DNA of 5,073 nucleotides from IMG/VR virus record IMGVR_UViG_2713896783_000030. The stretch is one strand, 5' to 3'. Source of the DNA: a virus (Duplodnaviria; Heunggongvirae; Uroviricota; Caudoviricetes). The notes beneath the pieces were generated by a model. The model worked only from the letters and a program-made list of their open reading frames with translations. It did not search any database and had not been told where the DNA came from. Of the stretch, positions 3,177-4,255 are shown one piece after another (position 1 is the first letter of the stretch; each line of letters opens with the position of its first letter). The translations under genes were made by a program, and so were the position numbers.

Positions 3177-3273
3177 ACCTTCCTCGGTTTAGTGTTTTTT
3201 TGCGAGTTTAGTGTTTAATAAACCATTAAGTCAAGTATTTGCTTGTTTAGTGATTACTAAAGATAATTACCAC
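3177..3273. promoter_or_regulatory. OR-like divergent promoter/operator region between the Cro-like gene and the repressor gene
   Basis: Three direct copies of GTTTAGTG (3187, 3206, 3245) and a palindrome GTTTA-A-TAAAC (3213-3223). Candidate leftward promoter on the minus strand: -35 TTGACT (3234-3229), 18-nt spacer, -10 TAAACT (3210-3205). Candidate rightward promoter: -35 TTGCTT (3239-3244), 17-nt spacer, -10 GATAAT (3262-3267). All predicted from sequence only. Confidence 0.6.
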
Positions 3274-3645
3274 ATGCAAAAAAAAGAAATTCGCCGTTTA
3301 CGTCTCAAGGAGTGGTTTAAAGATAAAACTCTGCCACCCAAAGAGAAGAGCTACCTATCTCAACTAATGAGTGGGAGAGCCTCGTTTGGAGAAAAGGCTG
3401 CCAGAAGAATAGAGCAAACATACGGGATGCCGGAAGGGTATCTGGATGCGGAATACGCAGAACAACCGGGGGGTTCTCCACCACATGCAGGGTTAACGTC
3501 TAATCAACTGGAATTATTGCAGATTTTTTCAGCCTTCCCTGAGGATGAGCAACGCCAGATAATCAGCGAGTTAAAGCAGAAAAAAGAATCAATGGAAGAT
3601 CTCATAGCGAGATGGATTGCGGCGCAAAAATGCCGCCGCGCCTGA
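3274..3645 (+). CDS. paaR: CI-like XRE-family HTH repressor without a peptidase domain (PaaR-like prophage repressor)
   Basis: 123-aa protein from ATG 3274 (MQKKEIRRLRLKEWF...KEKSYLSQLMSGRASFGEKAARRIEQTYGMPEGYLD, an HTH_XRE-like fold). No Shine-Dalgarno, and the predicted promoter places the transcription start at or near the ATG. The GTG at 3211 listed in the ORF track adds only a hydrophobic non-domain extension. Symbol assigned from recalled literature on CP-933P and not checked by search. Confidence 0.75.
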   Translation: MQKKEIRRLRLKEWFKDKTLPPKEKSYLSQLMSGRASFGEKAARRIEQTYGMPEGYLDAEYAEQPGGSPPHAGLTSNQLELLQIFSAFPEDEQRQIISELKQKKESMEDLIARWIAAQKCRRA

Positions 3646-3665
3646 GTTATAAAACCGGAGGAAAC

Positions 3666-3857
3666 ATGAATAGAGCCCTTTCACCAATGGTTTCTGAATT
3701 TGAAACCATTGAACAAGAAAACAGTTACAACGAATGGCTGCGTGCGAAAGTAGCAACGAGCCTTGCAGATCCGCGCCCAGCAATTCCCCATGACGAAGTT
3801 GAGCGCAGAATGGCAGAACGCTTTGCTAAGATGCGCAAGGAACGGAGCAAGCAGTAA
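3666..3857 (+). CDS. paaA: Small antitoxin (63 aa) of a ParE-family toxin; PaaA-like
   Basis: ATG at 3666 preceded by GGAGG (3657-3661). MNRALSPMVSEFETIEQENSYNEWLRAKVATSLADPRPAIPHDEVERRMAERFAKMRKERSKQ. Stop TAA at 3855-3857, one nt before the toxin ATG. The 81-aa ORF in the track is an N-terminal over-extension. The 63-aa size matches what I recall for PaaA2. Confidence 0.75.
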   Translation: MNRALSPMVSEFETIEQENSYNEWLRAKVATSLADPRPAIPHDEVERRMAERFAKMRKERSKQ

Positions 3858-3858
3858 A

Positions 3859-4137
3859 ATGTTACCCGTGTTATGGCTTGAAAGCGCAGATACCGACCTA
3901 GATGATATAACTAGTTATATTGCTCGTTTCGACATAGATGCGGCTGAACGCTTATGGCAGCGATTAAGGGGTTGTGTGCTGCCGTTATCCGAACATCCGT
4001 ATTTATACCCACCAAGCGACAGAGTACCTGGCTTGCGTGAGATTGTAGCCCACCCTAACTATATAATTCTATACCGCGTAACAACATCAAGCGTTGAAGT
4101 AGTAAACGTGATCCACGCAAGACGCCAGTTTCCCTAA
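3859..4137 (+). CDS. parE: ParE/RelE-superfamily toxin (92 aa)
   Basis: MLPVLWLESADTDLDDITSYIARFDIDAAERLWQRLRGCVLPLSEHPYLYPPSDRVPGLREIVAHPNYIILYRVTTSSVEVVNVIHARRQFP has ParE hallmarks (W..A..DL..I..YI, PG.RE, YRV, V..V.H.RR). ATG at 3859 in a TAAAATG junction with the antitoxin stop; GGAG about 11 nt upstream. The 124-aa ORF in the track is over-extended. Confidence 0.85.
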   Translation: MLPVLWLESADTDLDDITSYIARFDIDAAERLWQRLRGCVLPLSEHPYLYPPSDRVPGLREIVAHPNYIILYRVTTSSVEVVNVIHARRQFP

Positions 4138-4153
4138 CTTTCACTACCAATAG

Positions 4154-4202
4154 AAACATAACAACCGCAACGACTTTATCAAAAGCGTTGTGTTTGTTAT
4201 GT
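4154..4202 (+). terminator. Imperfect inverted repeat after parE followed by a T-rich tract: candidate terminator of the repressor-TA operon, or a protein-binding palindrome
   Basis: Left arm AACATAACAACCGCAACG (about 4155-4172), right arm CGTTGTGTTTGTTATGT (about 4186-4202), 13-nt loop, then GTTTAGTTTTTA. The stem is AT-rich, so this is not a textbook intrinsic terminator. Confidence 0.3.
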
Positions 4203-4204
4203 CC

Positions 4205-4255
4205 CGCGGTTTAGTTTTTACTTGACTTAAGTTTAATGTTTATTAAACTAAAAAT
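4205..4255 (+). promoter_or_regulatory. OL-like operator/promoter: inverted copy of the OR motifs plus a rightward PL-like promoter
   Basis: GGTTTAGTTTTT (4208-4219); palindrome GTTTA-T-TAAAC (4238-4248); CTTGACTTAA (4221-4230) is the reverse complement of TTAAGTCAAG at 3226-3235. Candidate promoter: -35 TTGACT (4222-4227), 16-nt spacer, -10 TAAACT (4244-4249). Confidence 0.5.

Follow-up and report, generated by a model that had tools for sequence, protein, structure and literature searches.

The repeat clusters flanking paaR2-paaA2-parE2 are the right and left operator regions of the CP-933P/Sp12 immunity switch of Escherichia coli O157:H7

The immunity switch of the cryptic lambdoid prophage CP-933P/Sp12 was described by Jurenas et al. 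(2021; mBio, PMC8630535), who named the promoters PR933P, PRM933P and PL933P and the elements OR1-3, OL1-3 and IR1-4. In their account the operators are 18-bp palindromes with the half-site GTTTAGTAA, two overlapping types of repeat exist, and starts determined by 5' RACE are given for PR933P and PRM933P. The 97-bp ydaS-paaR2 intergenic region was reported to be bound by both PaaR2 and YdaS in EMSA and DNase I footprinting, with OR footprints of about 78 bp for PaaR2 and 65 bp for YdaS, and gfp reporters of PR and PRM were repressed by PaaR2 and by YdaS. A PL933P gfp reporter was repressed about 100-fold by either protein, these data being obtained in vivo with overexpressed regulators; no EMSA or footprint on OL is reported in the main text of that paper. 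Bistability of the switch was shown experimentally in the same work.

The DNA analysed here, referred to as the window, is a stretch of 5,073 nucleotides (IMGVR_UViG_2713896783_000030) in which ydaT and ydaS are read leftward, followed by paaR2-paaA2-parE2 rightward (Table 1). Positions 2870-4440 were 100% identical to O157:H7 genomes and this, together with the match of PaaR2 to PDB entries 7nkv, 8c3k and 8c3l ('Phage repressor protein CI'; E = 5e-41) and the Pfam matches for PaaA2, ParE and YdaS, identified the locus as CP-933P. A literature search on the codes 7NKV, 8C3K and 8C3L returned no relevant paper. All of the EMSA, footprint and reporter primers of Jurenas et al. match the window exactly; in window coordinates the bound intergenic region is 3177-3273, the PR/PRM reporter fragment 3201-3274 and the PL reporter fragment 4138-4255. 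Locus and sequence are the same, and nothing substantive differs from the published switch. Of the two repeat clusters, one is the right and the other the left operator/promoter region of the CP-933P/Sp12 switch of E. coli O157:H7, and this reading is already known, having been published with experiments on the same DNA in 2021. Outside the operator regions, ydaT contains a masked run of N in the window (2725-2774), and a small downstream gene has a nonsense change.

Table 1. Genes, promoters, operators and other elements of the switch in the window. Matrix scores refer to the weight matrix described in the text.
Feature	Position	Strand	Location	Details
YdaT (CII-like) box	2867..2884		ydaS/ydaT junction, in PRE933P reporter fragment 2849-2968	TTGATT-N6-AATCAA, exact match
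ydaS, Cro-like regulator	2874..3176	-		100-aa ORF; Pfam YdaS_toxin, HTH_3; transcribed from PR933P
Candidate weak operator	3145..3162		inside 5' end of ydaS coding sequence	CTTAATGATTTAATAAAC; matrix score 10.5
Weak half-operator	3187..3204		over predicted PR start region	GTTTAGTGTTTTTTTGCG (GGTTTAGTGTTTTT box of the initial annotation); matrix score 0.2, good left half-site only
PR933P	3205..3234	-		-35 TTGACT (3234..3229), 18-nt spacer, -10 TAAACT (3210..3205); promoter scan, pattern search; drives ydaS-ydaT
Strongest OR operator	3206..3223		spacer and -10 of PR933P	GTTTAGTGT/TTAATAAAC; matrix score 24.9, top match of the window
Degenerate operator	3226..3243		over PR -35 box	contains TACTTGACTTAA; 12-nt perfect inverted copy of 4219-4230
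PRM933P	3239..3274	+		-35 TTGCTT (3239-3244), 17-nt spacer, -10 GATAAT (3262-3267); pattern search
OR operator	3245..3262		between PRM933P -35 and -10	GTTTAGTGA/TTACTAAAG; matrix score 23.3; 12/12 to TTTAGT-N4-ACTAAA
paaR2, CI-like repressor	3274..3645	+		123 aa, N-terminal HTH
paaA2	3666-3857	+		Pfam PaaA2, 1e-19
parE2	3859-4137	+		Pfam ParE_toxin, 1.9e-16
Stable hairpin	4156..4202	+	between parE2 stop and OL	22-nt arms, 3-nt loop
OL operator	4209..4226		overlaps PL933P -35	GTTTAGTTT/TTACTTGAC (GGTTTAGTTTTT box of the initial annotation); matrix score 16.7
PL933P	4222..4249	+		-35 TTGACT, 16-nt spacer, -10 TAAACT; promoter scan
OL operator	4231..4248		PL933P spacer and -10	GTTTAATGT/TTATTAAAC; matrix score 19.3
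Weaker overlapping OL site	4238-4255			matrix score 11.0

PaaR2 gave no Pfam match and in particular no S24 peptidase domain, and its C-terminus aligned with PaaR2-type homologues only, not with S24-containing sequences, while its DNA-binding domain was nearly invariant among homologues. It is not an SOS-cleavable S24 repressor, although relatives that share its DNA-binding domain do carry PF00717. Because PaaR2 is without the S24 autocleavage domain the switch is not SOS-inducible as that of lambda is; no response to mitomycin C was reported by Jurenas et al. The paaA2-parE2 pair lies as toxin-antitoxin cargo between the repressor gene and OL/PL. By Pfam, PaaA2 matched only the PaaA2 'stability determinant' family and no HTH, RHH or AbrB domain, and it was described as being without DNA-binding motifs in the 2021 paper; it does not have the makings of a canonical autoregulating type II antitoxin. 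The YdaT box, which belongs to the same switch and not to the OR/OL repeats, has been footprinted as site OM (Prolic-Kalinsek et al. 2023).

The initial annotation had described TTTAGTGTTTAATAAACCATTAAGTCAAG as recurring in inverted orientation at the other end of the repressor operon, and both copies were found where it had placed them, at 3207-3235 and at 4221-4252 (reverse complement TTTAGTTTAATAAACATTAAACTTAAGTCAAG). A box noted on either side, GGTTTAGT, is present in the whole window at 3186 and 4208 only, in direct and not mirrored orientation. The palindrome GTTTA-N-TAAAC is likewise confined to the two sites (3213-3223 and 4238-4248), but the unit of symmetry proved to be larger, an 18-bp palindrome GTTTAGTnn/nnACTAAAC. 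The outward-pointing -35 box claimed for each copy is there, as TTGACT-N18-TAAACT on the minus strand (3234..3205) and TTGACT-N16-TAAACT on the plus strand (4222-4249). The regions had been called mirror images: this is correct for the promoter core, which is inverted, and TACTTGACTTAA forms a perfect 12-nt inverted repeat (3226-3237 and 4219-4230, 100% complementary), but as whole regions they align at least as well directly. In local alignments of 3177-3273 with 4138-4260, compared with 2000 dinucleotide shuffles (mean score 19.0, SD 2.9), the inverted alignment scored 30, a value reached by 14 of the shuffles, and the direct alignment, which pairs 3182-3223 with 4203-4248, scored 37, reached by two. 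The inverted match requires gaps (29 nt against 32 nt), and the direct alignment is even better than the inverted one because the operator units are palindromes. These results confirmed that the likeness of the OR and OL regions beats chance. The number of GTTTAGTG octamers in the whole window, with one mismatch or fewer allowed, was not significant (seven found against 3.3 expected; 10/200 shuffles reached seven); the signal is clustering and palindromic pairing, not octamer count.

A weight matrix was derived from 64 homologous loci in other genera, which supplied 136 operator 18-mers, with the window itself left out; its consensus was GTTTAGTAATTACTAAAC. The four best of about 5,050 window positions were 3206, 3245, 4231 and 4209, and positions beyond the described operator sites gave no score above about 3. 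By this measure OR consists of four units, two strong and two half-sites, and OL of two strong sites plus the weak overlapping one, compared with the three OL sites proposed by Jurenas et al. On the right side, the 97-bp intergenic region separates divergent repressor and cro-like genes and carries multiple operators over back-to-back promoters, as in a lambdoid switch. The operator at 3206..3223 has 11 of 12 matches to TTTAGT-N4-ACTAAA and falls inside the published PaaR2 and YdaS footprints; the promoter that it overlaps agrees with the 5' RACE start reported for PR933P, and its GTCAAG and AGTTTA are kept in homologous loci. The half-operator at 3187..3204 is a member of a direct-repeat family (D1) and lies within the EMSA and footprint fragments; by our own assignment it is IR4 of Jurenas et al., described there as having only one half-site conserved. 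The degenerate operator at 3226..3243, which aligns with the -35-overlapping OL operator once PR is reverse-complemented, we similarly equate with their IR2, a half-conserved palindrome. The initial annotation did not name the strongest PRM-overlapping operator (3245-3262), and in most homologous loci a site matching it was found at -28 from the repressor's ATG. The paaR2 mRNA was reported to be leaderless, starting at the ATG at 3274, on the basis of 5' RACE, N-terminal sequencing (MQKKE) and mass spectrometry (PMC8630535), and homologues keep TTGCTT-N17-CAAAAT with an ATG 5-8 nt after it. The EMSA fragment does not reach the candidate weak operator within ydaS, which pairs with 3210-3230 as an inverted repeat (86% over 21 nt).

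On the left side, a second cluster of the same specificity, 4209-4226 and 4231-4248, overlaps an outward early promoter, PL933P, which faces away from the repressor operon and toward ydfC, DicF and dicB (RefSeq annotation, Rfam DicF) and which shares its -35 and -10 with PR933P, as Jurenas et al. also state. The first of these operators lies within the published PL reporter fragment; the GTTTAGTTTTTAC/TTGACT arrangement is kept in Proteus and Brenneria through to Pandoraea, Massilia and Paraburkholderia, and the second operator is kept as GTTTAGTATTTAATAAACT in homologous PL modules. PaaR2 and YdaS probably occupy OL directly. The segment 4138-4225, which contains the hairpin between parE2 and OL, has a predicted fold of -24 kcal/mol (z = -4.59), and the hairpin may act as a terminator or insulator of the paaR2 operon. 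A structured leader or small RNA downstream of PL was also considered and dropped, as the fold of 4256-4440 was not unusual (z = +1.46); searching the entire window against Rfam (E <= 1) yielded only two sub-threshold chance matches and no known RNA in the repeat regions or PL leader.

A motif search in related prophages had been suggested as a check on the OR/OL reading, and it bore that reading out: in 24 of the 64 homologous loci an outward PL-like module was found downstream of the repressor, compared with 0.02 in shuffles, and elsewhere in these loci the module was seen at three PR sites only. The operator matches fell at -200..0 from the repressor start (100), at +400..+3100 (71) and further upstream (12). 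No strictly defined PL module was found in the 3-kb flanks of the other 40 loci, some of which may have an OL beyond the flank or a divergent OL. A YdaS-like gene was divergently paired with the repressor in 53/64 loci; paaA2-parE2 was absent from all 64, the slot being empty or holding other genes. Both operator clusters are conserved along with the repressor's DNA-binding domain.

Two readings other than shared operators were weighed. One is that a sigma-70 promoter was simply duplicated in AT-rich intergenic DNA, with no regulator binding in common. AT content is indeed high in the two regions (69% and 74%, compared with 49% for the window), and the identical TTGACT and TAAACT hexamers supply part of the match. 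However, dinucleotide shuffles rarely equalled the observed alignment scores, palindromic half-sites lie outside the hexamers as well as inside them, and a matrix trained on other genera recovered these half-sites; moreover, PaaR2 and YdaS are both reported to footprint OR and to repress PL (PMC8630535). Contradicted by shuffles, matrix, footprints and PL repression, chance or promoter duplication was rejected as extremely improbable. The repeats might instead be the ends of a mobile repressor-toxin-antitoxin cassette, serving as recombination sites and not as operators. They do bracket paaR2-paaA2-parE2 in inverted orientation (pairs I2 and I9), and the absence of paaA2-parE2 from all of the homologous loci shows the pair to be clearly acquired cargo. 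Yet none of the ORFs lying between 3207 and 4252 encodes a transposase or integrase, the same flanking sites are present in loci with no cargo or different cargo, the regions are equally similar directly, and both coincide with promoters mapped or found active by Jurenas et al. The repeats are promoter-operator modules that also occur in loci without the toxin-antitoxin pair and do not have the character of terminal inverted repeats, and the transposon-end reading, for which we see next to no chance, was also rejected.

We are highly confident that the clusters are OR (about 3187-3262) and OL (about 4209-4255) of the CP-933P/Sp12 immunity switch. This lambda-like reading, put forward in the initial annotation, matches the published binding, footprint and reporter results as well as the comparative test, and its further proposal of one repressor for two divergent early promoters is borne out by the reported repression of both PR and PL reporters by PaaR2 (PMC8630535). 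In this switch the 18-bp OR operators are interleaved with the divergent PR933P (toward ydaS-ydaT) and PRM933P (toward paaR2-paaA2-parE2), the OL operators overlap the outward PL933P (toward ydfC-DicF-dicB), and the CI-like PaaR2 and the Cro-like YdaS compete for these sites. At low levels PaaR2 keeps PR and PL off and stimulates PRM, and at high levels it represses PRM; YdaS preferentially shuts PRM, and the two actions together give a bistable switch, with the ParE2 toxin-antitoxin pair carried as cargo in the slot of lambda's rexAB. The assignment of repeat types to PaaR2 and to YdaS is inferred, and any OR-OL loop would be formed by PaaR2 octamers.

The lambda analogy may end at shared specificity, with OR and OL being independent local clusters that PaaR2 does not bridge. 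This would be consistent with there being no looping experiment for PaaR2 in the literature searched, with a C-terminal domain that bears no relation to the S24 domain responsible for the cooperativity of lambda CI, with the reported repression of isolated PL and PR/PRM reporter fragments each on its own (PMC8630535), and with a distance between repressor and OL that ranges, in homologues, from about 440 to about 3100 bp. Against it, PaaR2 reportedly forms octamers in solution, as CI does (De Bruyn 2019, cited in PMC8630535), and the family keeps paired operator clusters, one to either side of the repressor, an arrangement which looping needs but which does not prove it. Independence of the two clusters is a serious possibility that falls a little short of an even chance. 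Extending the OR/OL reading in the other direction, PaaR2 octamers might bridge OR and OL in a loop of about 1 kb around the ParE2 toxin-antitoxin operon, to which the weak ydaS operator (3145-3162) may contribute, and the cassette of YdaS, operators and PaaR2 DNA-binding domain might represent a single immunity specificity of gamma- and betaproteobacterial prophages in which the SOS-cleavable S24 domain of the repressors has been swapped for a non-cleavable oligomerisation domain, locking prophage and cargo in place; this combined proposal is tentative, and we think it rather unlikely to be right as a whole.

The OR/OL layout explains how one repressor silences both the early-right genes (ydaS, ydaT, replication) and the early-left genes (ydfC, DicF, dicB), and how the level at which the ParE2 toxin-antitoxin pair is expressed is set by that repressor too. 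The OR/OL finding itself is no new biology beyond the 2021 work on the same DNA. What is added is that the two-sided operator-promoter cassette has been kept, in many genera, together with the PaaR2-type DNA-binding domain, that this domain also sits on genuine S24-type CI repressors, and that the toxin-antitoxin pair is cargo restricted, among the sampled loci, to the E. coli lineage.

CP-933P resembles lambda in several respects. The repressor gene is divergent from a cro-like gene, with multiple operators over PR and PRM; beyond the repressor operon, an outward PL is overlapped by a further cluster of operators; the mRNA of the repressor is leaderless; the repressor octamerises; a CII-like protein activates a PRE promoter; and cargo, rexAB in lambda and paaA2-parE2 here, sits between the repressor gene and PL. 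CP-933P differs in that its operators are 18-bp palindromes GTTTAGTAA/TTACTAAAC, with four OR units at a spacing of 19-20 bp and two strong OL sites 22 bp apart, in an OR-OL distance of about 1.0 kb, in a PaaR2 without the S24 autocleavage domain, and in YdaT, which is of POU type and unrelated to CII. Gene order and logic are shared with Rac (RacR-YdaS-YdaT) and Qin (DicA-DicC-DicF-DicB) of E. coli K-12: the PL-proximal leader (4254-4440) is homologous to DNA just downstream of racR, and ydfC, DicF and dicB follow PL as in Qin. However, both the repressors, RacR and DicA, and their operators differ from those of CP-933P, and YdaT of Rac also binds the racR-ydaS intergenic region, whereas that of CP-933P does not. 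The S24 repressors of Serratia, Yersinia, Erwinia, Proteus, Brenneria and Burkholderiales have an N-terminal HTH 60-83% identical to that of PaaR2, with an invariant SYLSQ...G.....GE.AARR core, and the same PR/PRM cassette and PL module; unlike PaaR2 they end in an S24 peptidase (PF00717, GDSM motif) and are presumably SOS-inducible because of it, and their loci lack paaA2-parE2 and have variable cargo between repressor and PL. As in canonical type II systems, transcription of the toxin-antitoxin pair is repressed via operators upstream of the operon, but control in CP-933P is by the prophage repressor and a Cro-like protein, with a second, distal set of operators.

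The region from 2870 to 4440 of the window matched E. coli O157:H7 chromosomes at 100% identity, and the locus is the immunity region of the cryptic lambdoid prophage CP-933P/Sp12. The CI-like repressor PaaR2 matched PDB entries 7nkv, 8c3k and 8c3l (deposition title 'Phage repressor protein CI'). Jurenas et al. 2021 (mBio 12:e02947-21, PMC8630535) worked on the same DNA, their primers match the window exactly and the YdaT box described by Prolic-Kalinsek et al. 2023 (PMC9986795) is present; thus, the OR/OL finding is already known and restates a published, experimentally supported result. 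In the available text of Jurenas et al., 5' RACE starts agreed with the predicted promoters PR933P and PRM933P (here PR and PRM), the paaR2 mRNA was proven to be leaderless, and binding in the 97 bp between ydaS and paaR2 was seen by EMSA and DNase I footprinting for PaaR2 (about 78 bp) and the Cro-like regulator YdaS (65 bp). A further promoter, PL933P (here PL), had the same -35 and -10 as PR and carried operators OL1-3. With gfp reporters PR, PRM and PL were each repressed by PaaR2 and by YdaS, about 100-fold for PL, and PRM was activated at low PaaR2; the analogy with lambda OR/OL was drawn explicitly and PaaR2 octamerisation was noted. A run of 50 N (2725-2774, masked or unresolved) breaks the ydaT coding sequence, and consequently ydaT, labelled YdaT family protein in RefSeq, has no Pfam match in the window.

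Features of the immunity region (window positions; fragments are those of PMC8630535)
Feature	Position	Strand	Basis or remark
DnaC-like gene	753-1493	minus	
Replication O-like gene	about 1500-2462	minus	
ydaT	2485-2877	minus	masked N-run inside
PRE reporter	2849-2968		primer map
YdaT box TTGATT-N6-AATCAA	2867-2884		exact sequence match
ydaS	2874-3176	minus	Pfam YdaS + HTH_3
Footprint fragment	3135-3323		primer map
EMSA fragment	3177-3273		primer map
Half-conserved unit	3187-3204		over PR start region
PR/PRM reporters	3201-3274		primer map
PR promoter TTGACT-N18-TAAACT	3234..3205	minus	promoter scan
Operator	3206-3223		fills PR spacer and -10; matrix score 24.9
Half-conserved unit	about 3226-3243		over PR -35
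PRM -35 TTGCTT	3239-3244	plus	
Operator	3245-3262		between PRM -35 and -10; matrix score 23.3
PRM -10 GATAAT	3262-3267	plus	
paaR2	3274-3645	plus	
paaA2	3666-3857	plus	Pfam PaaA2
parE2	3859-4137	plus	Pfam ParE_toxin
PL reporter	4138-4255		primer map
Operator	4209-4226		overlaps PL -35; matrix score 16.7
PL promoter TTGACT-N16-TAAACT	4222-4249	plus	promoter scan
Operator	4231-4248		fills PL spacer and -10; matrix score 19.3

All of the strings quoted in the initial annotation were found where it placed them: TTTAGTGTTTAATAAACCATTAAGTCAAG stands at 3207-3235 and TTTAGTTTAATAAACATTAAACTTAAGTCAAG is the reverse complement of 4221-4252. In the whole window the sole GTTTA-N-TAAAC sites are 3213-3223 and 4238-4248, and GGTTTAGT is confined to 3186 and 4208, both copies lying in direct orientation. 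A repeat finder returned a five-member direct family, GTTTAGTGnTTAnT (3187, 3206, 3245, 4209 and 4231), and a perfect 12-nt inverted repeat, TACTTGACTTAA (3226-3237/4219-4230). The proposal that the two regions are mirror images held only in part. When 3177-3273 was aligned locally with 4138-4260 in both orientations, the inverted alignment scored 30, a value equalled by 14 of 2000 dinucleotide shuffles, but the direct alignment scored higher (37, equalled by 2 of 2000). The similarity of the OR and OL regions is therefore real but not purely mirror image; they match in both orientations because the repeat units are themselves palindromic, and the inverted alignment proposed initially needs gaps because the units recur every 19-20 bp in OR and the OL operators are spaced by 22 bp. 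The outward-pointing TTGACT -35 claimed for each copy was recovered by the promoter scan, on the minus strand at OR and the plus strand at OL, and the PRM transcript starts at the paaR2 ATG (3274).

The repeats are kept in homologous prophages. The N-terminal HTH was nearly invariant among PaaR2 homologues (SYLSQ...G.....GE.AARR). At 64 repressor loci from species-representative genomes (Photorhabdus, Xenorhabdus, Proteus, Yersinia, Erwinia, Brenneria, Pasteurellaceae, Orbaceae, Burkholderiales and Nitrosomonas), the whole PR/PRM cassette was common to the regions 5' of the repressors, as AGTTTAttaaACACTAAAC-n5-GTCAAGtATTTGCTTGTTTAGTnaTTACTAATCAAAAT-n5-8-ATG. Scanning for TTTAGT-N4-ACTAAA (>=10/12 matches) placed 100 matches between positions -200 and 0 relative to the repressor start and 71 on its downstream side (+400 to +3100), with only 12 farther upstream than -200. 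A PL-like module, defined as an operator overlapping a TTGAC or TTTAC -35 box with a second operator in the spacer, lay 3' of the repressor on the outward strand in 24 of the 64 loci, against 0.02 in shuffles, and elsewhere at three PR sites only. In the alignment GTTTAGTTTTTAC|TTGACT|n4-5|GTTTAGTATTTAATAAACT was kept from Proteus to Paraburkholderia, and the PR of the window, reverse-complemented, aligned with this module. A weight matrix was then derived from 136 operator 18-mers taken at these loci and none from the window. Its consensus (GTTTAGTAATTACTAAAC) is the published half-site, and its top four matches in the window all fell within the two regions (3206-3223, 3245-3262, 4231-4248 and 4209-4226), followed by 4238-4255 (11.0), 3145-3162 (10.5) and 3213-3230 (7.5), with the rest at about 3 or less. 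The second of these runners-up, CTTAATGATTTAATAAAC, is the best match outside the annotated sites; it falls within the opening codons of ydaS, a stretch that the published EMSA fragment does not cover, pairs as an inverted repeat with 3210-3230 (86% over 21 nt) and could be an additional weak operator.

Most homologous loci (L001-L062) also keep TTGCTT-N17-CAAAAT about 30 bases upstream of the repressor ATG, which follows 5-8 nt on; this conservation suggests that the repressor mRNAs of the whole family, and not just that of paaR2, have little or no leader. The same immunity region occurs in the 40-kb record of Escherichia phage Evi (LR597642.1, 21332-27523; 98.3% identity over window 2777-5073), where three of the four strong operators are unchanged and the fourth, the OL operator that overlaps the -35, differs by a single base (TTTTTAC to TTTTTGC). 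The immunity type thus exists outside the defective CP-933P as well.

The PaaR2-type HTH came with one of two C-terminal parts, a short PaaR2-type one or an S24 peptidase domain (PF00717). The DNA-binding domain of PaaR2 (residues 1-58, window 3274-3450) shared 60-83% identity with the N-terminal domain of S24-peptidase repressors from Serratia, Yersinia, Erwinia, Proteus and others, at whose loci the same operators were found. A domain search detected no S24 domain in PaaR2, which therefore falls outside the S24 CI/LexA family, and only low similarity to CI has been described (PMC8630535). These sequence comparisons suggest that non-cleavable PaaR2-type and cleavable CI-type repressors have exchanged C-terminal domains. 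A YdaS-like gene was paired with the repressor at 53 of the 64 loci, and paaA2 and parE2 were found at none. The PL module lay about 70-300 bp beyond the gene in PaaR2-type homologues, and across the loci the slot between repressor and PL was empty or held unrelated ORFs, the latter at S24-type loci; a Proteus locus (L027) has a pair encoding 374 and 140 aa. The absence of paaA2-parE2 together with the variable slot contents supports the published suggestion that these genes were inserted between repressor and PL.

Between the parE2 stop and OL lies a long, stable hairpin (4156-4202; 22-nt arms, 3-nt loop), which the available text of PMC8630535 does not mention; the fold of 4138-4225 that includes it has -24 kcal/mol (z = -4.59), and the T-rich operator GGTTTAGTTTTT comes after it. 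It may act as a terminator or insulator of the paaR2 operon and corresponds in position to lambda tIMM. PL points towards ydfC, DicF RNA and dicB, and repression at OL therefore silences a cell-division inhibitor operon. Rfam places the DicF gene (RF00039, 76.7 bits) between ydfC and dicB, 3' of PL, at 6553-6604 of locus L066, about 350 bases past the right end of the window; thus, PL repression probably controls one EHEC DicF copy too. Of 5,426 complete E. coli genomes, about 3,700 carry the non-coding leader just 3' of PL (4254-4440), with 88-98% identity, and in K-12 it lies directly 3' of racR in Rac; it had no Rfam match and its predicted RNA structure was not unusual (z = +1.46). Antisense to the PL transcript is a small minus-strand gene (4568-4768; 'ECs_2282 family putative zinc-binding protein' in RefSeq, strain TR01), in which codon 14 (4727-4729) is an in-frame TAA instead of the Glu of TR01, so that the strain of the window carries a nonsense variant.

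In the working model PaaR2, bound at OR and presumably also directly at OL, would silence PR and PL and tune PRM; YdaS would be a rival for the same DNA, preferentially shutting off PRM, and YdaT would activate PRE. Binding at OR and repression of PR, PRM and PL have been shown, and we infer which repeat type is read by PaaR2 and which by YdaS. OR and OL, with centres about 1.0 kb apart, may loop together. Canonical toxin-antitoxin autoregulation, in which the antitoxin would act on its own operon, is ruled out as PaaA2 is without a DNA-binding domain, and the identification of the repeats as a transposon end was rejected. The initial reading of two promoters under one repressor in a lambda-like OR/OL arrangement agrees with the published repression of PR, PRM and PL and with the retention of both operator clusters in relatives; its observation is confirmed and its interpretation supported with minor corrections. 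What the analysis adds to earlier knowledge is modest: conservation across genera and the apparent domain swap. The paaA2-parE2 pair sits where rexAB sits in lambda, and the slot behaves like a cargo slot, as it does there. The locus functions as lambda OR/OL does, and the two defining features that sequence can test are found here: operators interleaved with divergent promoters, and another cluster of the same specificity over an outward promoter.
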